This document shows, piece after piece, positions 22,362 through 54,358 of a stretch of 64,000 bases of DNA. Source of the stretch: an uncultured virus (IMG/VR IMGVR_UViG_3300027734_000064) (lineage: Duplodnaviria; Heunggongvirae; Uroviricota; Caudoviricetes; Crassvirales); the IMG/VR virus record IMGVR_UViG_3300027734_000064; one strand, given 5' to 3'. Position 1 is the first letter of the stretch. Every line of letters starts with the position of its first letter. The translations under genes were made by a program, and so were the position numbers. The notes under the pieces were generated by a model. The model did not search any database and had not been told where the DNA came from. It saw nothing but the letters and a program-made list of their open reading frames with translations.

Positions 22362-22703
22362 ATGACACCTAATAAATTTATCGGAACATTGTTCCAGTCT
22401 CGTGACGCAATGCACCTTGCACATTTAGACACTAATTCTTTTGCCCAGCATATGGCACTTGGTGAGTACTACGATGGTATTCTTGATTTTACAGATTCAT
22501 TCACAGAAAAATATTTTGGAGCCAATGGTAGAATTCCTATTGACATTCCGGCATCTAAAAAGGAAGAGCCAAGAGAACACCTTAAAGGTATTGGCAAAAT
22601 GATTGAAGCTGAGATGAATAACTACTCTCCTGACTTGCAAAATATCTTGCAAGATATGTTAGGATTAGTTAATGAGACATTATATAAGCTCACGCTTATG
22701 TAA
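22362..22703 (+). CDS. Ferritin/Dps-like four-helix protein (DUF5856-like)
   Basis: H..H..T.SFAQH.ALG.YY....D.F.E; LQNI..DM......LYKL. Confidence 0.75.
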   Translation: MTPNKFIGTLFQSRDAMHLAHLDTNSFAQHMALGEYYDGILDFTDSFTEKYFGANGRIPIDIPASKKEEPREHLKGIGKMIEAEMNNYSPDLQNILQDMLGLVNETLYKLTLM

Positions 22704-23009: not shown

Positions 23010-24108
23010 AAGAGCCACTGAATTATATAATGAAGGGCTTACAAGTGCGACACAAATCGCAAGGCAAATACTAAAGGAGGGCGTAACTTCCGAGCCATTC
23101 GACAGGGTCAGAAGAAACATCTCTTTTCAAATAATAGAAAAGGATCATCTCTTGTCTAAAGAATGTGAGACACTTGGCATTCCAATTGATAGCGTAAAAC
23201 ATTACTGGCATAAAGGTAAGCACTTCTCAATTAATGTCGGAACAAACAAGCCGTTAGACTACAACGATATCAAAGAGTCAATCGTTGAGGAGATGCGCAC
23301 CTACGCACCAGTCTACCCAAACATCCAAAGAATACATGATAGTGAAGGATACCTGCTGGTCATCGACCCGGCTGACGTTCACATCGGGAAGCTCGCGAGC
23401 TCATTTGAGACAGGCGAGGAATACAACAATCAGATTGCTGTTGCCAGAGTAAAAGAAGGTGTGCAGGGCATATTAAATAAGTGTGCAGGGTTTAAGCTTG
23501 ACAAGATCTTATTCATTGGCGGCAACGACATATTACACATTGACACGCCTAAGCGCACAACAACTGCCGGCACATCACAAGATACTGATGGGATGTGGTA
23601 TGACAACTTCTTGATTGCCAAAGCATTATACATTGAGGTGCTTGAGATGCTTGTGAGCGTTGCTGACGTGCACTTTACGTTCAATCCGTCTAACCATGAC
23701 TATACCAATGGGTTCTTCTTGGCTGACGTGATACAAAGCTGGTTTAGAAACTGCGACAACATCACATTTGATTGCTCGATAGCACATCGCAAGTACTATA
23801 GATACCATAATAATCTTATTGGTACCACGCATGGCGATGGCGCAAAGAATGCTGACCTGCCGTTATTGATGGCTCATGAGGATCCTCAAGGATGGGCAAT
23901 TTGTAAGCATAGATATATTTATACACACCACGTACACCATAAGACCTCTAAAGACTATATTGGTGTCACTGTAGAGAGTTTACGCTCTCCGTCAGGAACA
24001 GACAGCTGGCACAGCCGTAATGGCTACACAGGAGCCCCAAAGGCAATTGAGGGCTTCCTGCATTGCAAACGCAATGGCCAAATAGCGAGAATCACTCACT
24101 TATTTTGA
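22993..24108 (+). CDS. Calcineurin-like metallophosphoesterase with N-terminal HTH-like region
   Basis: D.H.G, GND..H, NHD, HGD, H.HH motifs. Confidence 0.85.
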   Translation: MKPYYERATELYNEGLTSATQIARQILKEGVTSEPFDRVRRNISFQIIEKDHLLSKECETLGIPIDSVKHYWHKGKHFSINVGTNKPLDYNDIKESIVEEMRTYAPVYPNIQRIHDSEGYLLVIDPADVHIGKLASSFETGEEYNNQIAVARVKEGVQGILNKCAGFKLDKILFIGGNDILHIDTPKRTTTAGTSQDTDGMWYDNFLIAKALYIEVLEMLVSVADVHFTFNPSNHDYTNGFFLADVIQSWFRNCDNITFDCSIAHRKYYRYHNNLIGTTHGDGAKNADLPLLMAHEDPQGWAICKHRYIYTHHVHHKTSKDYIGVTVESLRSPSGTDSWHSRNGYTGAPKAIEGFLHCKRNGQIARITHLF

Positions 24109-27100
24109 TTTTTCCATTTCCTTCTCTGTAAGGGCTCTCTTCTGTGCAATTTGCATTAAGTTATTTGCGATAGCATTTAATTCTGCTGGCATAAAACCTA
24201 TGTTGTATAATGCTGGAATTGCTGCCCATTCTTTCAATACTTTTTGATCTTCTGGCAATAAGTACTTTGTTATTTTTTTACCACCATATGATTCCTTTTC
24301 AAATTTTCCAGTCAAAGCTGTTTTTTCATATTCGCTTGATTGAATAATTTTCGCAATAGCAATACCAGCTGTTCCCATCAAATCTGTTTCATCAATATTA
24401 TCAGAACTATAAAACTGAATAGGTTCTTCGGCCATTGGTGACTTATATTTTTCTGGTAATTCCCAACCTTCTTTTTGATATTTTTTTATTTCTTCTTTTT
24501 GCTTCTCAGTATATTCTTCTTTGCCTTCGTTTTTATAACCATAATATTTATCTAAAGCAAAGTTTCCAATATCAAGAATTTTACTATTTGATATTGGTAA
24601 TGGCGAAAGCAAATCAGTTGCAATAGTTCCTGAAGCATTTGTCATAATTCTTTTGAATTTCTTTTTCTTTTCTTCTTCTTTATCTTCTCCTCCAAGCCCC
24701 ATAAGGGACAATGACAAATTATATAATAAATATGCTTTTGCTCCATTAATTGCTAAAAATGACCCCATCTCAACTACAAGACCAGCCAATGATAATGCTG
24801 CTGCTTTTTTGTCTTCTGCTGTTGATTGTTTTCTTGCTGCAAGCGTAATAATATCTGACTGCATTCTTGCCTTTTGGTTCATATTGAAAACTGCCAATGG
24901 GAACGCAATCATTCTAATAGCTTGATGCAAAGGATCTCTTGATGTAAATAAGTTGCCCATTTGATTTGGGTTTGATGGAGACTGCTGTCTATCAACCATT
25001 TGCTGAGCATATCTTAATGCATCTTTATTTGGGTTTTTAGCTTCTTCATTCCAATCTACTTGATATACTCTTTTACCTATTCTTTGTGCATAATATGCAA
25101 TGAAAGACATTTTTGCAATTCCAACATCTGGTTTTGATAACACATAAGATAATCCCTTTTTAGGCAATTTGCTAATATCAGATATTGTTCTCAATCCTTT
25201 GTTCTTTGATGCATCCTCAATTATTTTATTTTCATTACTTAATGATATTGAAGATTCTGCACCTCTGTTTGCCACAGCCATGCCTGAAGAATTAATGAAC
25301 TTTTTCATTGCTTTATTTAAAAACATAAGCCTAAATCCAGAGTTTATCAATGTGCTTAAGGCAACTGGTACTGTTTGAGAAATAGGTTGACCAATACTAA
25401 GCAATGCTCTTGTTGTACCAATAGCTGAAGCTACTTTTAATAATTTCACAGCTTTTTCATAGTCAGATTTACTTATCATTGACTTTCCTCTTTCAACAGC
25501 AACTAATGTATTAATTCTAGATTTTAATAGTTGCATATCTTCTTCTGGACCAAGCTTCATAAATGATGGAGAGTTAATAAATCCTTCAAGCTGTCTAATT
25601 GGAGCTGCTGTTTTTACATCAACTAATGCAGCCCTAAATGCATTTGCCTGATTAATATCAAAATCAAAACTTAAAACTCTATTTTTAGGAAGAGTTTTTA
25701 CTTTCTTTGTTTTAATTAATGATCCAGATTTAGACTTTACAGTATAATCTCCAGTAGTCATCCTATAAGCCGAAACATTGTCTGATAAGCTTACATCTTC
25801 TTTTTCTTTACTCGGATCTGCTTTTTTGTAAGTTTTAGATGTAAAGTTTGCATCTCTTCCAAGATCATCATTGTAAACATTTTTAGATACTTCTTCAAAA
25901 TCTGAATAATGATTATCCCAATTATTAATCCACCACAAAACAGCATCTCTATTTGTTTTGCTAGTATTATCAATGACTTCTTGTCCATTTTTTGCATCTT
26001 TAATTAATTTATCAAATACTTTCTGAGCTAATTCTCCTTTTTTAACTTTTTTATTATCTTTAGAGTTTAGCATTACATCTATAGATTGCTGTATAAGTGT
26101 TTTTTGATCTTCAAAATAATCTTCATCACCATTATCTCTAAACAACAATGCAGCAATTCCTCTTTCGTAATTATTTTCTAATGTAAAGAATTCTTTTTCT
26201 TTTCCAAATTTTTCTACATACGCATCAATAGCTTCGTCAGCCATTGTGTTCGCTCTATTTACACCCTCTTCAAAATCATATATGCCAGAAACGCTTGAAA
26301 CAGCTCTATCTTTAGATTGACCAACAAACATAGTTTCTAAAAGTTTATGTATTTGCCAAGCCTGAGCAGCCATATAATTTGCAAATTCTGTAGAAAAATA
26401 AAGCCTTAATGATCTTGATTTCACTCCTTTTTCTTCAAGTTCTTTAGCGGCCTCTGCTCCTATTGCTTTATTCACAAGACCCTCCATTCCTTCTGTAATA
26501 TAATTATTTATGAAGTTGTCTAATCTTTCTACAGCAAGCTTTGCTTCTTTGTTCGATAACGCACTTAGGTCTAATTCTAAGAACTTTTTAATTATACTCT
26601 TTTGTGCTTCAGTTAAATCAACTATCTCTCCTGTTATTGGGTCTTCTCCAGTCTCAAGTATTTGTTTGGCAACATCTTTAATATCATCAAATATTTCTGC
26701 AAGTGTTTTTACAACTTCTTCGTCTTGTTGCTCTTCATTTTCAGATATGTCAATATTTTTAATTGCTTCAAGCATTTCTTTCTCGGTCATGTTGTCAGAA
26801 AGAATTCCGGCATCAAATAATTCTTGATACTTTTCTTTCATCTCATCCATTCTCTTCTGATTCTGCTGTTCAATTTGCGCTGCACTATATTTATTTACAG
26901 CTTCAATATCGGCAGGTGTTTTTAGTCCAGCATTAGCAGCAACAGACATCAATACTTCTTTAGCTTTATCTAAGTACTCATCTATATTGTCTACATCTCT
27001 TGGATTGACAAGCAAGAAGTTCTTAGCCATGTTTCTGTTGCTTGGCTGAACGTCTGCATTTTTAATACTTTTTGCTATTCTCTTTGCTATTTTTTGTGCT

Positions 27101-30100
27101 TCTGATACTTTTTCAGCATATTCGGCATCGTTAAATACCTTAACCATTCTGTCAACGAATCTGCTAACAGCGAGTGGGTTTTGAACATTTAATCTTGAAG
27201 CTGCTTTTAAAAGAGATGTCAATTGTTTTGCAGATATTTTACCTTTTTTCTGAATATCCTTTAACTCATTCATTATTGAATTTCTCAATTCATTTACATA
27301 TTTAACAGCACCTTTTGCAGCTTTTGCTTGTAACTTGATTTGCTCTTTTAATGCAACTGCTTCATTTACAGTTACTTTTTTGATGTCTTTTATTTTGCCA
27401 AATATTTTATTTACAGATGGCGCTTTCTTAAGTTTCTCTCCAAGCTCTTCGCGTAGCTCACGCTCCATCTCATTTCTTTGAACATCGTCAGCTCTCTCGT
27501 ATGCGAATGTATCTTTTAAAGTGTTGACAGCGCTTTCTCTTGCTTCTGCAATTGTTTTTTGTCCACGCTTTCTTGTCTTTTCAAAAGCATTAATAGCCTT
27601 TTGCTTAGCTTTAATACCGCCTTCAACCTCATCAAACGCTGACTTCTTTTTAGCTTCTTCTTCAATTGTAGGCTCAGCTGTTACTCCTTCAGCTTTTTGT
27701 TCTGGTACTCTTGTGCCCTCTTCTTCTATTGATGGAGCCTTGGCTTCTTGTACTCTTGATTTAGCTTTTTCAATTTGATCATTGTATTTTTTATCTATTT
27801 CAATTAAAGCCAAATCTCTTTCTTCAATTTGTTTTTTATTTTCTTGGTATCCTGGATCGCTTTCATCCAGAACAATAGGCATTAATTTATTTAATCCTTT
27901 TTGTTCAATTTCATTTTGTTTGTTTTCTTCTATTATTTTTATTTCTTTTTCAAGCTCTTTGTTGCTTTCTTCGGCAACGACTTGAGGTTTTGATTCGGGA
28001 ACTCCTTGCTCCACTTCTTGGCTAACTCCGGTTTCTGGCTGTACAGGTACTTGACCTGAGCCTTGCTCTTGAATGGCATATAAATTTTCTAATAAGTTTT
28101 TATAATAATTTGTTGAACTTTCAAATTCAGCATCTTTTGATAATTCTGAAATTTTTTGTTTTAAATATTCTTCAGGATTGGTATTTAAAAGATTTAATTC
28201 ATCTTCTAAAACTTTTATGTATTTATTATTTTTTTTATTTTTGTTGTTTTTTTTCTCAAACTCTATGTCATTTTTAAGACTATCTGCTAATTCATTTATC
28301 TTAACTTGACTCTCTTCTTTTATTACTGGCTTTTGTTTAACTTCCTCTTGAATAGGCTCGTTTACCTCTTCTTCTTGAGTAGCATTTGATATGTTTGTTA
28401 ATTCAACATCTATTTGTTTTATTCTTTCTCTTGGCTTAGCAGTAAGATTTGGATCCTTGCCTTCTATTTGAGAAGCAAGCTTTCTTTTTTCTGCAATCAA
28501 ATCATATGCTTTTCTTTGATTCTCTACACTGATGTTCTCTGGCATTTGACTAACAATAGCGTTAGCCTCATTGAATGATGTCAATAAACTTTGAGCCTTC
28601 TCTTGTGTTATTTCGCCTTTAGCTATCTTTGTTTTTAAGTCAGCAACAAAAGACGCTTTAGTTGCCTTGTCATTAATAATTGTTTTGGCTAACTTAAATG
28701 TTTGGTTGTCAAGCATTTTGCCAAGGGTATATTGAGCGGTGTTAGTAGCTATATTTACAACTCCTGCCATCCACATACCACCCAATGCTTCCATCTCGGC
28801 ATCTTCCCATACTTTACCTAACAACTCTTTAGTCGTATTTGGGTTTTTGAATATTTGTTTTTCTTTTGCAATGTTGTACAACTCATTTGAAGCCATTTCA
28901 GATGCACTTTGTAATGCGCCAGTCTCTCCCTCAGCAATCATTGCTCCAGCAGTATTTAATGTACCTTTTATTGCTAAGTTATTAATCTCTGTATTTAATA
29001 TTCTATTCAGACCATTGATGCCTGATTTAGGAGCCCACTTAGCCATGGACTTTAACAACAATGAATTTGCTAACCCTGCTTTAGAAAATGCTTGCGTAAT
29101 ACCCACATTCTCTAACTTAGCTTCTACAAATGAATTCAATCCAGACAAGATAAACTTTTCTTCTTTTGGAACATTTTTCATTTCTGGATTATTGTCATAC
29201 TCTTCCATCCTTCTACCAATACCTTGCAAAGTCATGCCAGCAACGAATCCACCAGGAATAGTAAACGCAGGGAACATCTCCGGCACAGAAAATAAAGCAG
29301 ATCTTATTTTTTTGTTTGGATCATTTTTATACTCTTCAGTCGTAGATGATAATTTTAGTTCATTGAATTTATCAGTAAGCCATTTATTTGCATCTTTTTC
29401 ATATTGTGTTTTTTGAGCGTCATTTGTCAAGCCCATTGTAAGAATATCTGTTCCTTCTAATGCAGCATATACAGCACCAGAAGCCAATGATTTTGAACCA
29501 TTTAATAATGAATTATATAATGCACCAAAAATATTTCCCTCTTCTTTTAATAGCTTAACATTCTGAGCTGCAAGAGATTTAGTTCCGGCATCAGCAAGAG
29601 AAAACACGGTCTTTGCATGATTCTTTTGATTTTCAAACTCTTTGCTTTTCTCATTGTATCTTAATTGAATATCATCTGCTTTTGCTTTTAACTCAGGAGT
29701 CATACCTTGAGTTGAAACAATTGCAGCAATAGCTTCGGCTTCTTTGTTGATATCATCAATTTCTTTTTTGATATCATTCATTGTATTTGAAGAATATTGT
29801 AGTTGCTCGTTTACGAACTTTAAGCTTTTATCTACATTCTCTTTTGTATAAATCCTTTTGAATCTATTCTCATCTTCAGGAGATACACCATTCTCGGCCA
29901 TTGATAAAAATTGAGTTGGGGTTAATTCTTTTTTATTAACGCCACCACTATTCCTAAACAAAAACTCTTGTAACTTTTCTTTTTCTTTTTTAGCAGCAAT
30001 CTCATTTCTGTAAATCATTACAGGCATTTGCTCGCCATTATCTGCGATAGCTGTAATTTGTCCTTCAAAGTTTTTAGCAATAGGATTATCTGTCTTTTCA

Positions 30101-30759
30101 AAACGAACACCTAACGATCCAAATTCTTTGTTAAACTCGCTTACTTTCTCGTCTACATTTAAACTTCCAGGCTGAACTAATTGACTGACATCAACATATG
30201 CTTTGCCTTTTATTGCTTTATCTACTTCTTGATCTGGTATTCTATCTCTTGTTGGAAACTTGACTGCTGGCTGTTGTGGAATAGGAGCTGCTTTAATAAA
30301 CTTATTAGCAGTCTGTAGGTCTTCGTTAAGTAATGGATCAGAGGCAATGGTTGGATTGCTGGCACGCAATTGCTCAAGTTGTGATTGAGCATTCTTTATC
30401 CCTACTGCATCATTCTTTTGCGCAGCCTCTTGTAAAGAACGGGTTAATGCTTGGTGTGCTTGCCAGTCCCTAGACTCAATACCTTTATTATACGCTGACG
30501 GATTCCTTGGAGATGCCGATAAACCAATTGGCTGATCCGAAGACGAAACAGATGCCCCAACGTCTTTTTTTTTTACGTCAGAGAAATACTTACTTTTAAA
30601 AGTATTTATGTCGTTTGTATATAATTCTTGCTCGCTGAGTTTTTTATACAATTCATTTTGGCCTTCTTCATTTCCATATTTAGCAACAAAATCATTGTAG
30701 CTATTTGTGTATAATTGCTCGCTATATAGCTTGTCGTATAATTCTTTTGATCCTGGCAT
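24100..30759 (-). CDS. Large internal virion/ejection protein
   Basis: 2219 aa, helical, last gene of the podovirus structural operon. Confidence 0.75.
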   Translation of the reverse strand: MPGSKELYDKLYSEQLYTNSYNDFVAKYGNEEGQNELYKKLSEQELYTNDINTFKSKYFSDVKKKDVGASVSSSDQPIGLSASPRNPSAYNKGIESRDWQAHQALTRSLQEAAQKNDAVGIKNAQSQLEQLRASNPTIASDPLLNEDLQTANKFIKAAPIPQQPAVKFPTRDRIPDQEVDKAIKGKAYVDVSQLVQPGSLNVDEKVSEFNKEFGSLGVRFEKTDNPIAKNFEGQITAIADNGEQMPVMIYRNEIAAKKEKEKLQEFLFRNSGGVNKKELTPTQFLSMAENGVSPEDENRFKRIYTKENVDKSLKFVNEQLQYSSNTMNDIKKEIDDINKEAEAIAAIVSTQGMTPELKAKADDIQLRYNEKSKEFENQKNHAKTVFSLADAGTKSLAAQNVKLLKEEGNIFGALYNSLLNGSKSLASGAVYAALEGTDILTMGLTNDAQKTQYEKDANKWLTDKFNELKLSSTTEEYKNDPNKKIRSALFSVPEMFPAFTIPGGFVAGMTLQGIGRRMEEYDNNPEMKNVPKEEKFILSGLNSFVEAKLENVGITQAFSKAGLANSLLLKSMAKWAPKSGINGLNRILNTEINNLAIKGTLNTAGAMIAEGETGALQSASEMASNELYNIAKEKQIFKNPNTTKELLGKVWEDAEMEALGGMWMAGVVNIATNTAQYTLGKMLDNQTFKLAKTIINDKATKASFVADLKTKIAKGEITQEKAQSLLTSFNEANAIVSQMPENISVENQRKAYDLIAEKRKLASQIEGKDPNLTAKPRERIKQIDVELTNISNATQEEEVNEPIQEEVKQKPVIKEESQVKINELADSLKNDIEFEKKNNKNKKNNKYIKVLEDELNLLNTNPEEYLKQKISELSKDAEFESSTNYYKNLLENLYAIQEQGSGQVPVQPETGVSQEVEQGVPESKPQVVAEESNKELEKEIKIIEENKQNEIEQKGLNKLMPIVLDESDPGYQENKKQIEERDLALIEIDKKYNDQIEKAKSRVQEAKAPSIEEEGTRVPEQKAEGVTAEPTIEEEAKKKSAFDEVEGGIKAKQKAINAFEKTRKRGQKTIAEARESAVNTLKDTFAYERADDVQRNEMERELREELGEKLKKAPSVNKIFGKIKDIKKVTVNEAVALKEQIKLQAKAAKGAVKYVNELRNSIMNELKDIQKKGKISAKQLTSLLKAASRLNVQNPLAVSRFVDRMVKVFNDAEYAEKVSEAQKIAKRIAKSIKNADVQPSNRNMAKNFLLVNPRDVDNIDEYLDKAKEVLMSVAANAGLKTPADIEAVNKYSAAQIEQQNQKRMDEMKEKYQELFDAGILSDNMTEKEMLEAIKNIDISENEEQQDEEVVKTLAEIFDDIKDVAKQILETGEDPITGEIVDLTEAQKSIIKKFLELDLSALSNKEAKLAVERLDNFINNYITEGMEGLVNKAIGAEAAKELEEKGVKSRSLRLYFSTEFANYMAAQAWQIHKLLETMFVGQSKDRAVSSVSGIYDFEEGVNRANTMADEAIDAYVEKFGKEKEFFTLENNYERGIAALLFRDNGDEDYFEDQKTLIQQSIDVMLNSKDNKKVKKGELAQKVFDKLIKDAKNGQEVIDNTSKTNRDAVLWWINNWDNHYSDFEEVSKNVYNDDLGRDANFTSKTYKKADPSKEKEDVSLSDNVSAYRMTTGDYTVKSKSGSLIKTKKVKTLPKNRVLSFDFDINQANAFRAALVDVKTAAPIRQLEGFINSPSFMKLGPEEDMQLLKSRINTLVAVERGKSMISKSDYEKAVKLLKVASAIGTTRALLSIGQPISQTVPVALSTLINSGFRLMFLNKAMKKFINSSGMAVANRGAESSISLSNENKIIEDASKNKGLRTISDISKLPKKGLSYVLSKPDVGIAKMSFIAYYAQRIGKRVYQVDWNEEAKNPNKDALRYAQQMVDRQQSPSNPNQMGNLFTSRDPLHQAIRMIAFPLAVFNMNQKARMQSDIITLAARKQSTAEDKKAAALSLAGLVVEMGSFLAINGAKAYLLYNLSLSLMGLGGEDKEEEKKKKFKRIMTNASGTIATDLLSPLPISNSKILDIGNFALDKYYGYKNEGKEEYTEKQKEEIKKYQKEGWELPEKYKSPMAEEPIQFYSSDNIDETDLMGTAGIAIAKIIQSSEYEKTALTGKFEKESYGGKKITKYLLPEDQKVLKEWAAIPALYNIGFMPAELNAIANNLMQIAQKRALTEKEMEKSK
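27939..28079 (-). CDS. Nested out-of-frame small basic protein (MPFKSKAQ type, 46 aa)
   Basis: MPFKSKAQVKYLYSQKPELAKKWSKEFPNQNLKSLPKKATKSLKKK, ATG to TAA, AT-rich leader. Confidence 0.65.
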   Translation of the reverse strand: MPFKSKAQVKYLYSQKPELAKKWSKEFPNQNLKSLPKKATKSLKKK

Positions 30760-30760
30760 T

Positions 30761-32272
30761 TTAATTTAATATTCCTTTTTTACTTTGTTGATTATTATAC
30801 CTAATTGGAGTAAAATCTGGGTATGCTACTTTTGCTCCTGGTTTTTGATTTGCAAATAAATTAGCTGTGTTATAAAAATCTTCACCAGTTCCAGCATCTA
30901 TATTAACTCTTTCCATTTCTATTTGTTTTGTTTTTGAGTTTCTAATTAAATTGCCTTCAGTGTCTTTTTTCGGTTTACTTATTTCCCAATATCTTTTACC
31001 ATTTTTCTCAATTAAATTAGTAACTCTAAATCCATCATATCCAGCTATAACATCTTTTACTGGAGCATCTAACACTAATCCAATTGCTTGGTTTCTTGTT
31101 TTTGGATTGTCCATAGCTCTAAGTTGCTCTAACCTCCTATTAGCAATCTCTTCTCCTTCTTGATCTTTTCTTATTTCTTTTCTTTCAGAAGCGGTCATTT
31201 GAGTAACCTTTTCCGGCTTTTCTACCTTATAATCAATTTGAGATTCAATTACATCATTCACAATTGATTTAGCTTTAGCCATTTGCTCTTCACTTAACTT
31301 CGGTGTAAAGATACCATTCTCATCTCTTACAAGCAAAATTGTTTTGTCACGTTGAGAAGATAAAGTATTAATTTCTTTTTGTATTGCCTTCTTGTCTGCC
31401 TCAGATTTCACAGATTCCCTTTGTGCAGAAAGCTTGTCAATCTGGCTATTAATTGCCTGAATTTCTTTAGCGTTATTTGTGAAAGAATATTTCTCGTCAG
31501 TATTGTCGGCCAATACACTTGCAGCTTTTCTTGGGTTGTTTGTAATGGCATCAATAATCTCTGGCTTAGTTTTGCTATTGAACTTACCTCTGATTGATTG
31601 AGAGATAACGTATCTACCGTTAACCATTCTTGCCTCTGATCCTAAGTTCTTCACATAGTTATTTACCTCGTTGGAAATATTAAGCTTATCTACGTTCTGA
31701 TTCAATCCGGCATTTATAGTTTGAACATCATATAAATCAGCGTCACCTACAACTTTGCCAGTCTCTGGGTCAACCTTAGCAATATACATTCTTCCATCCT
31801 TAGGATTGATAAATGTAGTCTTGCCTTTTAAGTTAAGCAAGTCAGCTGTCATTTGTCTTTGATATAGTTCTTGACCGGCAGCTTTACCTTCCTCAATTCT
31901 TTTTAATCCTTCCTCATAGTTTGCATCGTATTGCTTAGTCAAGTCAGCGAGTCTTCCCCAGCCATCTCTTGTAGTTGATACAATTCTTGAGTACTCGCTT
32001 GGAGTAATCATTCCTCTTTTAAGCAATTGGTTTTGCTCATACAGAGAATTTCTTACATTGTTTGCGCCATCCATTACAAACTGATTGAACGTAGGAGACT
32101 TAGATCCTTGATACTTGTCTACGATAGATACTACGTCAGAGTATTGTTTGTCTAACTCAACTCTTTTCGCTTCTCTATCTTCTTCTACTTTGCCAAGTTT
32201 CTCTAATATGTTCTGCGTTATATTACCCCAATCAATTGGGTTTGTGGCTTGATACTGTGAATATTCTGCCAT
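30761..32272 (-). CDS. Putative internal virion protein
   Basis: 503 aa; position among ejection genes. Confidence 0.65.
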   Translation of the reverse strand: MAEYSQYQATNPIDWGNITQNILEKLGKVEEDREAKRVELDKQYSDVVSIVDKYQGSKSPTFNQFVMDGANNVRNSLYEQNQLLKRGMITPSEYSRIVSTTRDGWGRLADLTKQYDANYEEGLKRIEEGKAAGQELYQRQMTADLLNLKGKTTFINPKDGRMYIAKVDPETGKVVGDADLYDVQTINAGLNQNVDKLNISNEVNNYVKNLGSEARMVNGRYVISQSIRGKFNSKTKPEIIDAITNNPRKAASVLADNTDEKYSFTNNAKEIQAINSQIDKLSAQRESVKSEADKKAIQKEINTLSSQRDKTILLVRDENGIFTPKLSEEQMAKAKSIVNDVIESQIDYKVEKPEKVTQMTASERKEIRKDQEGEEIANRRLEQLRAMDNPKTRNQAIGLVLDAPVKDVIAGYDGFRVTNLIEKNGKRYWEISKPKKDTEGNLIRNSKTKQIEMERVNIDAGTGEDFYNTANLFANQKPGAKVAYPDFTPIRYNNQQSKKGILN

Positions 32273-32274
32273 AA

Positions 32275-33105
32275 TTATTTTACAAATGGATTATATGCGC
32301 CAAACAAATCATTATCATATGTGCTTTGATATGGACTAACTGACTGCCCAACATTTGGAGTCATTTGAAATTGAGCCAAAGGATTGTATTGCGAATTCTC
32401 CCAATATTTTGCTTGAAGTCTTGGAGCAGGAGCAGACAATCCAGCTTCTGGAGCCGTAACTAAGCCACTCTCCGGACCTGTTAAAATACCTGGATTTACT
32501 GATTGTTGTTTTTCTGTTGCAATGGTATTTATTGTTTTTGCAGGAGTTTTGTCTTTCTCATACAATGGTCTATTCTTTTCGTATTGAACAGCTAGTGCGC
32601 CAATAGTTCCGGCAGCACCAGTAAGACCAGCGTTAATATTTGCCTGACCTTGTGCTCTTGCCATTTGAGCTCCTTGTAATTGAGATGTTAAGAAGTCATT
32701 TTGTTGTGCAACCTTACGAGCCTGCATTGCTTGCTCTTGTTGTGCAACAAATGTATCTCTTTCATATTTAGCCTGATCAAGTTGAGCAGCCAATTGTAAG
32801 TCTTGTGCAGTACCTTGCTGTCCAACAGCTGGCAAGCCACCTAATACAGCAGCAGCTCCAGCACCTTGCAATGCTTGCACCTGGTTCGCTGTTCTTTGAG
32901 CGCCTGATTGTTGCGCTAACTGATAACCAAGTTGTGGCACTTGTACGCCAGCAACTCTGTTTTGTTCAGCCAACATTTTTTGTTGTGCTCCAATATCAGC
33001 AGCTGATTTAGCAGCAGCCTTCTCTTGTTGTACTCCTTCGTATGTTTGATATGCGTTAAGAGCTAATCCAGCTCCTGCAACCAATGTAGATGTTAATGCA
33101 GCCAT
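32275..33105 (-). CDS. Putative small ejection protein
   Basis: Ala/Gly/Gln-rich with hydrophobic N-terminus, T7 gp14-like position. Confidence 0.65.
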   Translation of the reverse strand: MAALTSTLVAGAGLALNAYQTYEGVQQEKAAAKSAADIGAQQKMLAEQNRVAGVQVPQLGYQLAQQSGAQRTANQVQALQGAGAAAVLGGLPAVGQQGTAQDLQLAAQLDQAKYERDTFVAQQEQAMQARKVAQQNDFLTSQLQGAQMARAQGQANINAGLTGAAGTIGALAVQYEKNRPLYEKDKTPAKTINTIATEKQQSVNPGILTGPESGLVTAPEAGLSAPAPRLQAKYWENSQYNPLAQFQMTPNVGQSVSPYQSTYDNDLFGAYNPFVK

Positions 33106-33539: not shown

Positions 33540-34334
33540 TTAAGGGTAACTTTTAAATACCTCTGAAGATACTTGGAAAACTTCTACAGAATCAGTGTTT
33601 GTGCTATCCAATTGCACGTCCATATAGTAGCCTCTCAATCCAAAAGATTCTGATACTGAATTCTTTACGGACAAAATAAAGTCTCCTACAATCGGTGCAA
33701 CAAGTGTTCCGGATGCGTCAGCGATAATTCGTATAACCGTCCTGTTTGTTACCGGGTTATATGTCTTTGTAGATGCCATACCACACTTTGCTTTTGCGGC
33801 TAGCGATCCATTGATTCTATAAATGATGTCACCGCTAAATCTCCCAGGGCTATTTAGATTGACATTATCTCCAACCTTTCCGGCAAATGTAATGTCTACA
33901 AAGCCAGCGCCAGAAGAAACAAGTAAAACTTCAGAGATCCCTTGAGCCGATAAGTACACTGTATTCGACTCATTGTCCTCTCTACGGATATATGCGAACC
34001 ACATCCCTTCCTTTCTTACAAAGTTGTCATTGTTGATGTTGCCAGATCCAAGGTTAGATAAAACTTGCGCTCCCCAGCTATCGCTTGACTCAAGATGCAA
34101 TGTCTTAAACATTTTCTGTTCGTCAGGCGCATCGTTGAATATTGTTCTTACAGAAGAGTTGTATTGCGTCCCATAAAAGTTATTATGTACTGAATTAGTA
34201 TTGTGCTTCCATATCTCGCCATTAACGAACGTGTAGAAGTTGTTGTTCATATTTGCCATCCAATCAGGAAAGTAAGAATGAAATGATGTCCATCCAGTCA
34301 AGACGGGAGAGTATGTTAATGTATAGTTCGCCAT
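33540..34334 (-). CDS. Tail nozzle/stabilisation protein, C-terminal part
   Basis: TLTYS....GWTSFHSY.P...FYG...K.FK.L.LES...F..KEG.WFAYI pattern. Confidence 0.65.
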   Translation of the reverse strand: MANYTLTYSPVLTGWTSFHSYFPDWMANMNNNFYTFVNGEIWKHNTNSVHNNFYGTQYNSSVRTIFNDAPDEQKMFKTLHLESSDSWGAQVLSNLGSGNINNDNFVRKEGMWFAYIRREDNESNTVYLSAQGISEVLLVSSGAGFVDITFAGKVGDNVNLNSPGRFSGDIIYRINGSLAAKAKCGMASTKTYNPVTNRTVIRIIADASGTLVAPIVGDFILSVKNSVSESFGLRGYYMDVQLDSTNTDSVEVFQVSSEVFKSYP

Positions 34335-35275
34335 TACTGCAAATTTAATCTTTTTTTGGCGGAGTTCTCAATCCACTTCCAATATAAGTAAGAACACCTG
34401 TTTGGATCTAATCCTTTTATATCCAATCCGATTGGATCTACGTTGACATATTTGCCCTTTACAAACATACCAGTGCTGTCATCTATGGCTCCGGCATTAT
34501 GATAAAAGCTAACTTTGTCCCACCTTGGTGCGCCACACGTCGCCCATGCGAAGTCAAACTCTGGCACAACCATGGTCTCTATGCCTCGCTTCCATAAGCA
34601 CCATAGCTCGGCCCACATACTGGCACACCATATCTGCACACCGTAAGGGTCACCGTCTTTCTTCTTATCTTTTAGTTCTCCAAGGCCAAAGTACAGCGCA
34701 TTGCTAATATCCTCAACCTCTTGCCAGTAATCAGCGTCAACGCCCTTCAGTAGCTTCTGCGCACCGCCGCTGACCATTTCGTTAGCTTCAATGATATGGT
34801 GGTCAATGCCGGCTAACTCGCACATCTTTAAGAAGACATCTTCACCTTTGCTTTTGATATACTTTGCACCAATGTAGCTTATCGTGTCGGATAAATAGCA
34901 GATATTATCGTATCTATGCGTATCAAAATTCATCGGCCTTGTAAATAAGAAGTCACAATCGTGATAAAAGATGGCACAATTCTTTGGAAATTTGTGACAT
35001 ACTTTCTTTAATATGTGCGGCTGAATGGATGGCGCATAGCCTTTATTCTCTCTCGTGTCCTCTGCGTAAATGAAATTTACTTTTGGATACATTCTCTGGC
35101 ATCTCAGCCAAGATGCCGGCAAATCATTGTCTATGGCTGCGACAACGTAAATATCCTTCTCATCTATTCCCATAGATGTAAAGTTATTTAAGTAAACCTC
35201 AACCTGCCAGGCATAATAGTCCGTGGCAGGTTGGGCTGAGAGATAGATTAAGGGCAATCTAGTGCTGATATCCAT
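34334..35275 (-). CDS. GT-A glycosyltransferase resembling peptidyl-Ser/Hyp O-glycosyltransferases (GT96/GT95); start uncertain (35332, 35275 or TTG 35257)
   Basis: YYAWQ, Y.PSIQP, FYHDCDFLF.RP (DxD), SGGAQ, WCASMW, HNAG. Confidence 0.7.
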   Translation of the reverse strand: MDISTRLPLIYLSAQPATDYYAWQVEVYLNNFTSMGIDEKDIYVVAAIDNDLPASWLRCQRMYPKVNFIYAEDTRENKGYAPSIQPHILKKVCHKFPKNCAIFYHDCDFLFTRPMNFDTHRYDNICYLSDTISYIGAKYIKSKGEDVFLKMCELAGIDHHIIEANEMVSGGAQKLLKGVDADYWQEVEDISNALYFGLGELKDKKKDGDPYGVQIWCASMWAELWCLWKRGIETMVVPEFDFAWATCGAPRWDKVSFYHNAGAIDDSTGMFVKGKYVNVDPIGLDIKGLDPNRCSYLYWKWIENSAKKRLNLQ

Positions 35276-38200
35276 TGTGTGCCGTCCCACTGAAAGGTTG
35301 CGAATACTCCACCTAAGTCTCTCTTGTACCATCCAGCAGGCGCAAGTACTGTTCCGCCAGCATTGGTGTATAAAGATCCTGTAGAGCCAAAGTTATTGGT
35401 GTAGTAGTATCCAGTGAATGCGCTTGACGCACATGATGCTCCAGACGTTAATCCAAACGCTAAGCTTACATTGTAAACAGGAGGCGCTGTTGTTGTGGTA
35501 GTCGTTGTACTTGTCGTTGTACTTGTCGTTGTACTCGTGGTTGTACTTGTTGTTGTAGTTGTGGTTGTGGTAGTTGTAGCACAGTTATACTTTGCAAGAA
35601 CTAATCCTGTAATAGATATCTGCAAGGCATAAGTGTTTGCGCCTTCATTTACATAGTACCACTTATTCAATCCATTAAATACAATTGTACCTATTGAGTT
35701 GGTATAGATAAAGTCTCCAAGTGCAGGATATGCGCTAGCTCCGTTATGGTAGAACGTAGTTGAGTTTACACCTAAAGAACAAGAACTATACTGAGTGCTA
35801 TATCCCGTTGGATCCATAAGGTATCCAGTAAAGGTAGGCGTAGTCGTTGTTGTGGTTGTTGTCGTAGATGTAGTCGTTGTTGTACCAATACACGTTGCGC
35901 AGTTTGCGTAAAGAACTCTTGGATTAGGAATTAAATACCCATAAGGCTGAGCAGATACCGTGCCAGTAATTGTCCAGCAGTTGCCATCAGATGACTTCAA
36001 TACATTACCTACTGAGATAGCTTGAGAATAAGTATCTAACAATACGTCACTGTATGTAGTTCCGCACAATGTTGCGCTATAATAATTGCCTGCTGGCAAA
36101 GTAGTTGTGGTCGTTGTGGTTCCGCAATTAAATACGTCAACTACATTTCCAAGGTTGTCAACCTTGATTGCTTGTCCGTTATTTATTAAGTACCAATTAT
36201 TACCACCTACTAAAGGTGTAGCGCCATTTTGATCTTCATAAACAATGTCATCAACCATTGGGAATACTGTGTATCCATTTGAGTACATAGTGACAAATGT
36301 AGGCACAGCAATAGCGCAGCATAATGACGCACTCACTTGATTATGAACCTTGTCCACTTGGATAGGTACATAGTTTACAGGTTGACTGTTTACAGTGATT
36401 GTAAATGTGTTTGGTATACTTGTTCCTACACAGTTAGTTGCAGTCACAGTTAAGTTGTATTGCCCGAATCCAGACGCTGTCCCGGAAATCAATCCCGTTG
36501 AAGTGTCAAGAGTTAAGCCTGCTGGCATACTATTAGTTTGACAAGGACCTACCAGTGAGTATGTTACGTCTGACCCAGTTACAACTGATATTGTGCCAGT
36601 AACATAGCATTTGTAAATAACCTGACCAACGTTAACCACAACATTCTCATACAATAATGTATTTGGGTTCTGTCCAGTAACAACACCACCAACTGTTCCT
36701 CCATCAATCGAATAGTTAGACGATGTGGTTGATACGGCAAAGCTTGTCGGGTTATTTGTTGCAGCTATCTTAATGCTTACATCGTTACCTTGGATGTATT
36801 CTACATTGCCTTGAATAACAACTGGCACAGCAACCTCAGTACATCCGCAAGCGGTTACCGATAGAACAACACCGAAGTTGTCAATGTTTAGCGCATAGCC
36901 AGATATATAATAATACTTACTGTCTCCGGCAAACAATGTTGTTCCACCAGCATCAGAATATATAATGTTCCCCTCAGAAGGTATGCTATTTTGTCCATTA
37001 TAATATACAGTTGTACTTGTGCTTCCTCCGCACGCAAGCGCTGAAGTTGCATAAGGTGTTGTCCCCATTGCAATTGACCTCAATGTGGTTGCGTAAGTTT
37101 GGAATGACCATGTTGTGCTGGCAATAGGAGAGTAAACATACAAGAAATAACTTCCTGTTGTTTGCTTAACTTGCGTCAAGAATCCTACTCCATTGTTTAC
37201 CAATCCATTATAAGGAGAGCTTAAGTTTATATTGTCAACGCCCAATGCAACTAATGCATTATAGTTTGCTAAACTGTTTAGTCCAACATATCCACTATCA
37301 TTTATTAGGTTGTTATTTGCGTCGTATAAAACAAATCTAGAAGCGCCAACACCTGCATTGTATTTCAACTGTACGTTACCTACGCTTGAGCCATAGTTAA
37401 GTTCAATGATTTCAGGGTTCAATGTGCCAGAAGATGTAGACGATCCAACACTTGGAATATTTACCTTGTTTCTATAATCCCAAATCAAATATAAATTAGT
37501 ACCATTCGCTGCATAGTTAAAGTTTGCATTGTAAAGCCCTGCACTATAAACTGGTGTAATCTCGGTAGACGCTGCAATCAATGAATCTACGTTTGCAGGG
37601 TCATAGGTTGTATTTGTATCTAACGAATATACTTTGTTACCCAAACTTGGATTAAAGATCTTTATATTCGATCCTTGTGCATTTGTAGAGTCAGTGTAAG
37701 ATGTAAGCGTTACGGTATCTCCTACTGCTGGAATATCACCTTGGCCAACAACACCAACATTTTGAGCGTACAATGACAACCCAGTTGGCTGCATTACTAC
37801 GTTTGAGTACAAGGCTCCCGAAGATCCTGAGCTTGTCCAGTTTACTCTTTGTTGTGTTTGTGAGCCACCTTGAGATACTTGACCACCATTGGCAACCACA
37901 ACTGTCTTAATAACAGCAGGCTTGTTAGATTGAGTCAAGATAACATCTTGGAATGTTCCACAAGCATTTACTCTTATTCTTATAGATCTCGCAGCACCAG
38001 CGCCAATGTTTGATGTAAGCGTAACTTTAATAAGTTTGTTTCCTGTGCCGGCAACTTGAGAAAGTGTAGCCCATCCAGTTCCAAACCCATTGTCAATCAA
38101 TGACACTGTCCAGTTCTGAGATGCCGTAATAATAAATGTGTCATATGTGCCGGCAGTTCCCTCGATAAAGAAAACTGTTTTGTTTACAGAGTATGTACAC

Positions 38201-41200
38201 AAGTTTACAGTCTTTGTGTTGCTTGTCAATACATACACGGCATCATAAGGATCGTATACGCCAATCTTTTGTGTGTCGGGACCACTTGAGAACAAATCTC
38301 TAAACCAATCTCTCATCCCTTGAGAAGATATCTCAAACAATCCAGACTCATCAAGCTTCATTACTGTGCCTCTTCTGGCATCAGTAAAGAACATATCAGA
38401 TCCCCACTTTGCAAAACTCTCAGGGTTCAAGCTAATACCATACTCTCCTGTAAATGGTACAGGTGTACCAAGCACCTCAGGGATAGAAGCAATTGCACCT
38501 CCGCCAATAGCATCGCTTAGTAAGTTCTTCTCGTAAAGAACTTTAAATACTTTATTCTCTTGGAATACAATTAAATCAGTATCTCTTGAATGCAGCTTTT
38601 GAATAGATCCGTATGCTCTGTCTAAGAACTTGAAGTTAGCTTTTGACAAGTTGAACTCATTCAATCTGTTGGTAGATGTCTCAGACTGATATATTTGCGA
38701 GTATGTGATGCCAGACTTCGCATTGCTTTGTGCATAGTTAGGAATGTATGAGTTAACCCTTGGAGTGTTGCCTATCGTAGGTTGATTGAAATCATCTCTA
38801 ACTCTATAGCTCTCAACACCATTACCAAACGAGAATGCATTAAAGTCATTAATCTGCAATGTTGCAATACCATTTAATACTTGCCCAACATCTCCAGAAA
38901 TATTTGACTTATGAAGCTTTGTAACTCCATCGGAAGCAGTTACAATAGGATATGTCGTTGGTATCTCATAGAATATTTCAGAGTTATTATCCTTTCCAAT
39001 TGTTTCAAGTACGATAGGGCTTTGACCATTTAAGCTATATGTAATTTTAAGAGTAATTCTATTCTGAGGAATTGTATTTAATCCTCCTCCGCTAAACTTA
39101 CCTAATTGATTATTAACATCATACCCCTTTACAATTAAATAAGTAATACCGCTTATAGTTCTAAAGAAAACATTAAATGAACCGTGATTTGTTCCATCTT
39201 CAGAATATTGCTTAAACTTACTATAAACTTGATCTTCATAAAACCATTCCTCAATATTTACATAATCAGAAGAAGCAATAAATGTTTGTTCTGGCTGATC
39301 TGCGGCACCCTCACTTTCAGATATATCTATTTTAATTACTTGACCAGTAGTTATGTTATTTAAAGGAAGTTTTGCAAATCCACCATCTTTTTGAGCAACA
39401 GGATCACTCCACCAAGTTGGACCGTTAAAAGTATTATTTCCTTTGTTGCTTCTACAATTTATTCTCCAAGAATCTCCAACTGTGTATCCAGATGTTGATC
39501 CAAATATAATAAAACCAATAGATTTGCCTGATGCGTCTTTTAAATAGTTACCTTTTTTTACGGTTGTAATCGTTGATAAACTATCTTTATTTATTGTAAC
39601 ATTTGATTCAATAGGCGCAGATAAATTAGGAAACAAATAATAATTAAATGTATTTGTTCCTGTCATTTTTATAGAATATCTTGCATCTTTTGCCCCTCCA
39701 TAATAAGTTAATGCAGTAAGCTTACTATTACCTTTTCCATAAAATATTGGATTTTCAATAGCAGCATAAGGATTATACTTATCAAGATTTATAGCTATAC
39801 TTCCTGATCCAGTGTAAGTATCTCTATTGTTGGCGAGACCAAAATCACTTATGGATGTTTCTGATCTTGATATTTTAATAAATAAACTTCCTTCGGCTTT
39901 AACTTTAATGTAAAATCCTTCAGGTTGTTGTAGTGGAGATGTATTCAAAAAATTAACTGCTTTCATGTCTGCTTCAAGAATTTTATATCTTTCAGCAGAC
40001 CCAGTTGCTCCAGACTCTGTAGACTTAATTGTTAAGTAAGAATCTTTTTGAACCTTGTCAATGTCAGCCTTAGGTATTAAGAACCAAGTATATAATCCAT
40101 CTTGAAAATAATTAACTGGAAATACGTTATAATACTCTGATTTATTTTGTTTTATAAAGAATCTATACTTTGTTGCAAAGCAAGGAGCATAGTTGTTCAC
40201 TTTCACTTTTAATAAGTTTTGCGCTGTAGATGCACTTGCTGGCACATGAACTGTGTTCTCATCAGAGGTAAGCACGGTTGTCATTCTGCCATAGTCATCT
40301 AAATACACAATACCTAACTCATAGTCTCTGTCGCTTTTAAATGTTTTTCTTGGAACACCCTTAGTTACTACCGGTATAGAATTCAATTCAGCTTTAAGAC
40401 TAACATTGATAGGCACTTGATTGCAGTCAGCAATATCATAAAACTGAGTGTAGTTACCATAAGACAATCTGTTGCCAATATACTCTTGTGCTTTTGCCTT
40501 CAATGGTACGTTGTCAAACAACCTTGTCAATTGATCTTCTGGCAAAACAGCGTAAGCCTTGTTATTTTGAAATTTAAACTTATTCGATAAAGCTGTCGCC
40601 TTGGTTATGTTCTCAATAATATTTGCCGTCAATGAATAAGTGTCCTTAAATATTAACTGAACCTCTTTTACATTGCTGTCTCCAAAGTCAAAAGTAATCT
40701 CAACGGTATTGTTTGCATTGACCATAGACTTGTTACTACCTGTCCCATAGTCATATGAGAACACCTTAGGGAAAAATGCAACGTCAGAGAATGGCGATAA
40801 TGCGCTATACTCATTGTCAAGGTATTTATATCTATAAGCAAATCGTATAAATCTCTCACTGATATTATTCACGTCAGAACCATCATTGCTCATTACAATT
40901 GTAGGCGCATTCAATGGAGGAGCCAAGATCACAGATATGTCTTTGTCTGTAAATCCATCTAACGGATATGTTCTTGTTACATTTATTTTTCTTGGTGGGT
41001 TTAATCCATCTGTCCAATACAATAAATTATCAACTAAGTTAACACCAGTAATTAAAAAGTTAGTACTAAACTTCAAGTACTCAACGGGTGCCCTGCCAGC
41101 GCTTTCTATTAATAATATATATGTCTCTCCTGTTCCGTTTGCGTTCTCATGGTATTTCACAACCATATTAAACACGCCCTTCACAAAGTAGTATATATTA

Positions 41201-45675: not shown

Positions 45676-46776
45676 TTATTTTTTGTTGCTTTTTATAACT
45701 AATCTATTGCCGTGGTCGTTGTCAAGAGAAGTTACCTTAAATCCACCTTTGCCCATATTTTCTGGTACGGATCTTACACCTCCCATATCTATGTTCTTTG
45801 ATTCCTTTGCAATTGTTTCTACTGCCTCAGCTTTTCCCTGATCGTAGAAATATTTTGCAAAACCCTCCGGATTTCTGGCAACTGCTATCGCCCTATGATA
45901 CGCAGCCGGATCTTTCATGAAACCGTTATCATCTAAGAATGTCTTGATGAACTCGGTCAAATTAGATTGATCCTTCTTAATCGCTTCTGTCTCGCCTGGT
46001 TTGTAAACAAATTCATTATCTCCAACTTTAAATCCAAAACCTTTGAATTCATTAGAGAATAACTCGTCAGTTTTCTTGGCGAAATATTCAGCTCTTTCTC
46101 TCTGCGCCTGTTCAACTTCTTTGGCACTCTGGGCATATTGCTTAAAAGCGGTGTACTGATCTTTTTCTTCATCCGGAATCCCAGCACCTCTTGACTCAAG
46201 AGGAACTTTGTATTGGTCCTTCAGTTTGTTAAAGTAGTCCTTCGCTTTTGTAAGCTCTTGTTTGTGTGCTATTCGTTTCTTCTTAACATCCTTTTCATCG
46301 TCCATGTCTTCATCGTACTTAAACTTGTTCTCAAGTTCAAATGCAACTTCCTCATCGTCAAGTTCTGGGTTGTTTTGCTTGTAATAATCGAACAGCAACT
46401 TATTTGGGTCTTCGTTATCAATGTCTCTATTTACTTTATAGAAGTCATTAATGCCTCGACCTGTTTCCTTTTTGAACTTTAAAAACGCTGAGACATCCTC
46501 TGGTAACTCTTCAGTTTGATTTCTCTCTTGAAGCAAGTCATCCAAAGTATTAATCTCTTTGTTATACCTATTCTTAATAAAGGACAGAACGTCATTCTCT
46601 TCAAGTTCCCTTGGCTGTGCTTCTGGCACAACGATGGGCTCTTCAATTCTAACAGGCTCTTCAACCTGTTCTACTGGGTGCTGTTCTTCGTGCTTGGCTA
46701 GTAACTCCTGTTCGATTTCTTGAACAGATTTTTCTTCACCGAAACTCACAGCTTTTACTGATGTGAAATTCTCCAT
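45676..46776 (-). CDS. Capsid scaffolding protein
   Basis: Highly acidic, helical, between portal and capsid genes. Confidence 0.7.
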   Translation of the reverse strand: MENFTSVKAVSFGEEKSVQEIEQELLAKHEEQHPVEQVEEPVRIEEPIVVPEAQPRELEENDVLSFIKNRYNKEINTLDDLLQERNQTEELPEDVSAFLKFKKETGRGINDFYKVNRDIDNEDPNKLLFDYYKQNNPELDDEEVAFELENKFKYDEDMDDEKDVKKKRIAHKQELTKAKDYFNKLKDQYKVPLESRGAGIPDEEKDQYTAFKQYAQSAKEVEQAQRERAEYFAKKTDELFSNEFKGFGFKVGDNEFVYKPGETEAIKKDQSNLTEFIKTFLDDNGFMKDPAAYHRAIAVARNPEGFAKYFYDQGKAEAVETIAKESKNIDMGGVRSVPENMGKGGFKVTSLDNDHGNRLVIKSNKK

Positions 46777-54212: not shown

Positions 54213-54358
54213 TATTTCTTCTTTGCCGTCTTTGCAGATTGCTTGAATGCTTTTGCGGTTGGAGCGCCTTTAGTGCCAGGTTTTCTCATTGTCTCACCGC
54301 TACCGGCTTCAATGCGCTTCTTCTTTGCATTTACATTTGCGTATAGTCCTTGTTTCAT
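54212..54358 (-). CDS. Small basic protein (48 aa, not in track)
   Basis: MKQGLYANVNAKKKRIEAGSGETMRKPGTKGAPTAKAFKQSAKTAKKK. Confidence 0.75.
   Translation of the reverse strand: MKQGLYANVNAKKKRIEAGSGETMRKPGTKGAPTAKAFKQSAKTAKKK

Follow-up and report, generated by a model that had tools for sequence, protein, structure and literature searches.

We analysed a stretch of 64,000 nucleotides from an uncultured virus of the Crassvirales (IMG/VR record IMGVR_UViG_3300027734_000064), which we call the window. The phage is probably a crAss-like podovirus that infects Bacteroidota. A GGAG-type motif preceded only 2% of 47 gene starts in the window, which is consistent with a Bacteroidota host. The structural module runs from the terminase through the portal, the scaffold-position gene, a putative capsid gene, tail genes and a muzzle domain to three genes for proteins of 276, 503 and 2,219 amino acids (Table 1). 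The 276-aa protein matched phrog_13764 (virion structural protein). Inside the last and largest of these genes we observed a small gene in another reading frame. Elsewhere in the window we noticed a virion protein of 2,067 aa containing an Ig domain and long runs of Thr close to the C-terminus (35248-41451), a 332-aa gene between two tail genes that appeared glycosyltransferase-like by eye and has a homologue in genome G005 (34334-35332), and a 113-aa gene matching phrog_858 (starvation-inducible transcriptional regulator; 22362-22703).

Table 1. Positions of the features discussed in the text, in coordinates of the whole window.
Feature	Position	Strand	Remarks
Giant host gene, putative cargo (ejection) protein	24100..30759	-	2,219 aa; third of the three genes that follow the tail/muzzle genes
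Other +1-frame ATG ORFs inside the giant gene	30222-30392 and 25791-25997	-	56 and 68 aa
Conserved host-gene region	27046..27513	-	independent anchor for collecting giant-gene homologues
Nested gene	27939..28079	-	46 aa, ATG to TAA; MPFKS family, weakly phrog_1375
Host codons 894-940, acidic "shadow" linker (YAIQEQGSGQ...)	27940..28080	-	same bases as the nested gene
Putative initiation region of the nested gene	28080..28104	-	rich in A, poor in G, weak folding (MFE -2.7), within host codons
AT-rich variable stretch of the host gene directly before the nested ATG	28081..28382	-	17-25% G+C
Two smaller putative cargo genes before the giant gene	30761..33105	-	503 and 276 aa; from gene order
Crassvirus muzzle C-terminal domain protein	33540..34334	-	PF25729, E 6e-17
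Scaffold-position gene, between the portal and the putative major capsid gene	45676..46776	-	nested copy absent here
Portal	46819-49251	-	
Terminase large subunit	49251-51464	-	

The product of the largest gene had been called a giant ejection protein in the initial annotation. The gene order and the domains of homologues fit this description, and on these grounds the gene probably encodes a cargo or ejection protein; neither Pfam nor PHROG profiles name a family for the protein. The gene is a large one following the tail genes, as expected for the ejection or cargo module of a podovirus. DUF3293, DUF7178 or ART-PolyVal was found downstream of the nested gene in 4 of the 7 homologous Bacteroidota-type giants scanned. 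No matches were obtained for the C-terminal half among annotated phages, and no characterised ejection protein was matched in sequence, either by profiles or among annotated phages. Crassvirus cargo proteins gp45-gp50 and the T7/P22 ejection proteins are treated in PMC10172136. Like the genes for gp45-gp50, our host gene is large, stands after the muzzle and tail genes and is the last of three, but neither a sequence match to these proteins nor an RNA polymerase domain was detected. The accessible part of that article mentions no gene nested in a crassvirus cargo gene.

The nested ORF was present as the initial annotation had described it, small, basic and complete with its own ATG and TAA. 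It begins 2,680 nt past the start of the giant ORF, which places it in the +1 frame, and lies wholly within the longer ORF on the same strand, start and stop included. The peptide has a pI of 10.3 (14 K/R vs 2 D/E). AlphaFold predicted two short helices (residues 6-15 and 17-26) and a basic tail (pLDDT 83). The peptide contains neither Cys nor a hydrophobic leader and its gene context is structural, so it does not resemble an Rz1-type outer-membrane spanin. Over the same bases the host frame encodes 10 acidic and 3 basic residues, in agreement with the acidic linker proposed earlier. The proposed richness in G+C was also confirmed: the nested ORF has 45%, the two 141-nt flanks 18% and 26%, and the whole giant gene 33%. 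Only 1.2% of 141-nt windows in the giant gene reach the value of the nested ORF. The length of the ORF is not significant by itself, as two longer ATG ORFs share the +1 frame of the giant gene.

The nested ORF is not an assembly artefact, because G001, the complete virus record closest to the window, has the same 47 host codons over it without change, and a contig of run X3 covers 3 kb around it without gaps. The same record differs from the window at 126 of the 2,172 other codons of the giant gene; many other bins also show 0 changes, and the comparison is therefore uninformative on selection over the overlap. One family match per genome was found in all 5 records, 3 of which are complete.

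A search with the host-frame motif confirmed 122 loci among 599 stretches, and 80 of them were taken for reading. All 80 carried the ATG and an intact nested ORF of 41-61 aa; loss of the ATG or gain of stops, which the initial annotation had named as evidence against the gene, was seen in none of them. The conserved giant-gene region outside the overlap served as query for an independent search, which gave 29 loci, a few of them contigs already seen. The +1 ORF was present in 24 of them. Every one of the 23 loci whose 5' end is closed is among these carriers, and 7 carriers bore a second subtype that begins MPYKSQAQ. All 5 loci without the nested ORF are cut at the 5' end. In L187, however, 1,307 codons before the anchor contain no copy, which exceeds the gap in 19 of the 24 carriers, and this locus may be a true absence.

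For the analysis of selection we used 30 codons of 54 non-redundant loci out of 60 (2 were dropped for a gap and 4 as near-duplicates). Entropy at nested positions 1, 2 and 3 was 0.47, 0.30 and 0.89, respectively, nested position 2 being the host wobble position. The nested peptides shared 78% amino-acid identity, vs 52% for the host-frame residues. The rate of change was 0.477 at sites silent only in the nested frame and 0.060 at those silent only in the host frame, a difference of approximately 8-fold (43 pairs; the loci share ancestry, so that all such counts and rates are non-independent trials). In the scaffold clade the difference was approximately 3-fold (0.259 vs 0.082, 6 pairs). Synonymous choice in the host frame was frozen, with Ala encoded by GCC in 65 of 65 loci vs 6.8 expected. 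Purifying selection thus acts on the nested frame, as the proposed per-frame comparison was meant to reveal.

The host frame is also constrained, loosely. Random re-encoding of the host peptide left an ATG frame open in a median of 14% of draws, with 40% identity to the real peptide, and re-encoding of the nested peptide left the host frame open in 0.15% of draws, with a charge of +4.7 instead of -6.5. Since neither re-encoding recreates the product of the other frame, both frames are under constraint. The peak of G+C is explained by the third codon positions, whose G+C is 78% in the nested frame as opposed to 28% in the host gene; G or C at these positions is needed for an open acidic host frame. 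A DAVQ-type string can be read behind free-standing copies as well. The DAVQ/AIQEQ motif of the host linker is a by-product of the nested gene, the shadow of dual coding that had been suspected.

We observed that the nested start carries a statistical signal of its own. Among 65 loci, A was found at positions -3, -6, -12 and -13 in 88, 71, 66 and 78%, respectively (controls approximately 37%), and it was also enriched at the host wobble positions -2, -5 and -8. The four former positions coincide with those of start-site A in F. johnsoniae, as given in the accessible text of PMC6847099. With a scoring matrix built from 47 starts of the window, the median start score was 2.35 in nested loci and -3.77 for 4,334 out-of-frame ATGs; the nested start of the window outscored 98% of the latter. 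Folding around nested starts was weak (MFE -2.0 vs -6.2 in controls). Nested copies in other phage groups had GGAG before the ATG (L073, L236, L284, L309, L316, L328). These data suggest an initiation signal that matches the translation system of the phage group, and the nested gene is presumably translated.

A search with the peptide found 17 proteins among 18 candidates, and a profile search (E up to 0.001) found 3,665 clusters at 50% identity. Among 149 new top profile matches, 130 have the module beginning at residue 1, and it is N-terminal in 109 of 115 longer family proteins. The family is mostly free-standing or N-terminally fused. Free-standing phage members, claimed by the initial annotation, do exist; a sister subfamily has 114 free loci among 120, the other 6 being nested. 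An origin as a de novo overprinted gene was rejected on the basis of these loci and the 3,665 clusters.

Among annotated phages 81 records matched, and 68 of them are Flavobacterium elemo phages. In elemoA 7-9A (NC_055852), a phage of Flavobacterium sp. BAL314, a 42-aa copy, unannotated, lies at 54224-54352 of the record in the +1 frame of a 3,694-aa structural gene. At least 394 of at least 600 IMG/VR stretches were confirmed, and of the best 80 loci, which we examined, 68 were nested (57 in giants, 11 in the scaffold-position homologue) and 12 free. The scaffold-position copies lie at approximately codon 57 of a 414-431-aa homologue of the scaffold-position gene of the window. Together with the window, the elemo copy and one Manatee Spring phage, the 68 loci make a nested set of 71. 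Beyond what the initial annotation described, nested copies thus occur in at least three kinds of host gene, namely the cargo giant, the scaffold-position gene and giants of phages that use Shine-Dalgarno sequences, and always in the +1 frame.

Free copies were found in terminase, portal or head modules at six of our loci and in the phages P-RSP2, S-CBS2, 023Pt_psg01, Barnyard, Indlulamithi, Agatha and Patience. Others lie outside head modules: two near replication genes, gp75 of cluster B mycobacteriophages in the right arm and FlowerPower gp48 before the holin. A scaffold-clade genome (L202, 1189-1548, minus strand) has a free paralogue of 119 aa that contains only the N-terminal portion of the module, directly after the giant gene and among other small basic genes.

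The nested peptide matched phrog_1375 weakly (E 0.004), and hhalign gave a probability of 53% for a distant link to Patience gp10, itself a member of phrog_1375 (E 1e-31). Of 18 aligned relatives, 17 matched phrog_1375 with E no higher than 1 (best 1.7e-6); at a threshold of 0.01, copies from elemo phages, the scaffold clade and the second subtype gave no match. The known members (Patience gp10, Barnyard gp9, Indlulamithi gp3, cluster B gp75) share with the nested peptide F-K-S-x-x-Q, an aromatic residue, A-x-x-W, L-P and a basic tail, and often adjoin the portal or terminase; unlike the nested copy they are free-standing, and they have no assigned function. Pfam and NCBIfam profiles did not assign the nested peptide to a family. 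Foldseek searches gave nothing under E 3.7 in the PDB and only uncharacterised phage proteins in BFVD (best E 0.003, TM 0.82). Matches in a PDB sequence search were to beta-propellers through summed repeats only and were rejected; the same search with Barnyard gp9 returned only eL34 at E 1 or worse. We found no description of the nested gene in the literature, of which mostly open-access articles were covered, the description of the elemo phages not among them, and an earlier mention is possible. The accessible part of PMC7824862 has nothing on the MPFKS family.

In a tree of 84 selected peptides (43 columns, bootstrap unsettled) a single clade of nested copies was rejected (AU p 0.0004), and the starred branches force at least three changes. 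Recombination between subfamilies at an existing nested site could explain part of this pattern; it cannot explain the move between scaffold and giant genes. The window has its single copy in the giant, and an 83%-complete genome of the scaffold clade (G002) has its single copy in the scaffold-position gene. In the sister subfamily, 2 of the 6 nested loci were confirmed in giants with long flanks and 4 are open across loci of 626 bases only. GGAG precedes the ATG in 5 of these 6 and in L073, whose host protein matches a DarB-like family. The host flanks of nested copies do not align, and the position of the copy in the giant ranges from codon 392 to codon 1,888.

The -1 frame of free copies in AT-rich phages contains 3-9 stops. 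Among free IMG/VR copies at 52-64% G+C, 5 of 9 are stop-free in this frame and already DAVQ-like, which offers a route into host genes. Repeated capture of an existing gene seems to us rather probable, with nesting arising by insertion. The small gene would be older than the overlap and would have entered tolerant linkers of proteins inside the head (cargo giants, scaffold) on more than one occasion. Such uptake would work because G/C third positions leave the -1 frame of a K/P/W-rich peptide open, to be read as a linker of E/Q/V/G/A/T.

The sequence around the nested ATG has been exchanged in close relatives. In contigs of runs X5 and X8, compared at 80% likeness, 28081-28382 is replaced by unrelated sequence with breakpoints at 28079-28080, joints that may stem from other organisms; the X5 contig is 24 kb long and approximately 95% identical to the window. 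This stretch looks like a recently swapped module. In one close-relative contig the sequence is replaced from 27971 downward. Once captured, the nested gene would be the best-conserved stretch of that part of the giant gene and would bound module swaps. A comparison of the giant gene with the nearest complete relative (L210) over host codons 1035-1175 showed changes in patches between identical blocks, a recombination mosaic.

We consider the nested ORF almost certainly a real gene. It is likely a translated same-strand nested gene that is older than the overlap and was captured into linkers of head-internal proteins. Ribosomes would start internally on the late structural mRNA at the nested ATG, at an A-rich, unstructured site of Bacteroidota type that lacks a Shine-Dalgarno sequence. 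The product would be a 5.4-kDa basic protein of two helices, and the giant protein would read those bases in the -1 frame relative to the nested gene, as a linker that is acidic and probably disordered. A programmed +1 frameshift into the nested frame, giving a shortened giant protein with a basic tail, is very unlikely. It would account for one database protein (P0022), in which the N-terminal half of a giant is fused in frame to the peptide, but this single case lacks approximately 165 aa that precede the shadow in the 98%-identical full-length P0288, and we attribute it to deletion or misassembly for that reason. Moreover, the median distance from the ATG back to an in-frame stop is 4 codons (0-1 codons in 9 of 71 loci), a shared slippery heptamer is absent, Met is invariant, and the family module is N-terminal as given above; a shift exactly at the nested ATG is still conceivable.

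Selection on the host linker motif, with the +1 ORF as an untranslated shadow or the relic of an old insertion, would agree with a host frame that is open in all nested loci and keeps its acidic composition. It is hardly credible, as host-synonymous positions are fixed and host-nonsynonymous first positions vary, the ATG is lost in 0 of 80 loci, and the type of start signal changes with the translation system that the phage group uses. Equally hard to believe is that the conservation is due to an element at the DNA or RNA level (a promoter, a packaging site or a recombination site). The swap breakpoints of close relatives do fall at or within the nested segment, but variation has a three-base periodicity in the nested frame, amino acids are kept across synonymous codons, and TAnnTTTG, which we take to be the Bacteroidota promoter motif, was found upstream without excess (11% vs 11%).

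The function of the translated nested gene is a more even question. We give about an even chance to a late, head-packaged microprotein that binds nucleic acid; such a protein would bind DNA or acidic proteins of the head interior. Cargo polyproteins of large phages begin with this same module, and the head protease may cut it off. The module at times precedes DUF5661 or DUF6321 (4 of 51 fused forms scanned). KxA, xES or xxGG motifs followed 58 of 74 fused modules, vs 35.6 in shuffles, the motifs having been chosen post hoc; they recall head-protease sites. The fused forms of large phages (P0030-P0166, L229-L296) are mosaics of small basic modules (DUF5661, DUF6321) between such motifs, suggesting processed polyproteins. 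According to the accessible parts of PMC4324244, Patience gp10 is listed as a virion protein by mass spectrometry. Under stringent criteria its Table S1 gives gp10 1 spectrum in particles, 4 at 30 min and 2 at 2.5 h, and 30-33 spectra for the neighbours gp11, gp12 and gp111. The scarcity of tryptic peptides may explain the low count, gp10 having one fully tryptic peptide of 6 or more residues. A capsid stabiliser of the Patience gp4 type was considered and dropped, as the Patience relative is gp10, not gp4.

A role in the host cytoplasm, as a basic factor that binds RNA, ribosomes or host proteins (late takeover, lysis timing, counter-defence), is possible but clearly less probable. The peptide is small, basic and helical, some copies lie outside head modules, and gp10 spectra are more numerous in cells than in particles (PMC4324244, accessible parts). 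However, most contexts checked are terminase, portal, scaffold or cargo genes. In the same source gp10 is more abundant at 30 min than at 2.5 h, like the particle proteins gp11, gp14 and gp18 and unlike gp19, gp21 and gp32, which act in assembly only. DUF3008 (PF11450), the nearest Pfam-bearing Atlas cluster at 0.85 and a lead only, would suit the cytoplasmic role; identity with it was rejected, since a Pfam match was absent in 18 members.

Rz1 of the lambda Rz/Rz1 spanins is a known example of a same-strand gene that has its own start and lies wholly within a larger gene, in its +1 frame. Spanin genes occur in separate and embedded arrangements and form a fixed functional pair in lysis. The MPFKS family resembles them in frame, own start and the existence of free and embedded forms. 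Unlike the spanins, it has host genes of different kinds in different clades (cargo giant, scaffold-position gene, unrelated giants), by its sequence the product is no lipoprotein, and a host gene is lacking for most of its members. In phiX174, E in D is a case of overprinting, in which the nested frame is the new one. There too two proteins come from one stretch of DNA, but here the nested gene would be the old partner and the host-frame segment the new sequence. The architecture appears Rz1-in-Rz-like, yet the gene is no spanin, and with its thousands of relatives outside the overlap it is not a product of de novo overprinting. T4 internal proteins carry a capsid-targeting leader of approximately 10 aa that is cut by gp21 and does not stand alone. 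The MPFKS module is likewise small and basic, N-terminal on varied cargo and followed by protease-like motifs in fused forms, but it does stand alone. Patience genes 91 and 20 contain same-strand out-of-frame internal ORFs with their own ribosome-binding sites and mass-spectrometry support, for which the accessible text reports no database relatives and little or ambiguous conservation (PMC4324244). Unlike these, the nested MPFKS gene is strongly conserved and has thousands of free-standing relatives.

We lean slightly towards a joint reading in which an old, widespread microprotein gene acts as an insertable two-frame cassette, with repeated same-frame entry into head-internal genes of unrelated kinds, a start matched to the ribosome of each host, absorption of the other frame as an acidic linker and use as a conserved anchor where the giant gene exchanges effector modules. 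If this is true, the overlap comes about when an existing gene is captured, which inverts the order of overprinting, and the family is far commoner in podoviruses than annotation shows. Gene callers suppress embedded same-strand genes, and to our knowledge conserved, fully embedded ones are rare in dsDNA phages outside lysis cassettes. Almost all members of the clade have the nested gene, which nevertheless lacks annotation even in the RefSeq elemo phages. A recurring "conserved motif" of giant virion proteins is thereby flagged as a reading-frame shadow and not a domain. The free, fused and nested forms, the last in three host types, give a natural series for the study of overlaps with an older inner gene, and the elemo phages, as a cultured phage-host pair, make thousands of uncharacterised microproteins testable. 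We also noticed unannotated free-standing members in Synechococcus phage S-CBS2, Prochlorococcus phage P-RSP2 and phage C75C1 (L083 4001-4111, L084 4001-4123 and L085 4001-4105).
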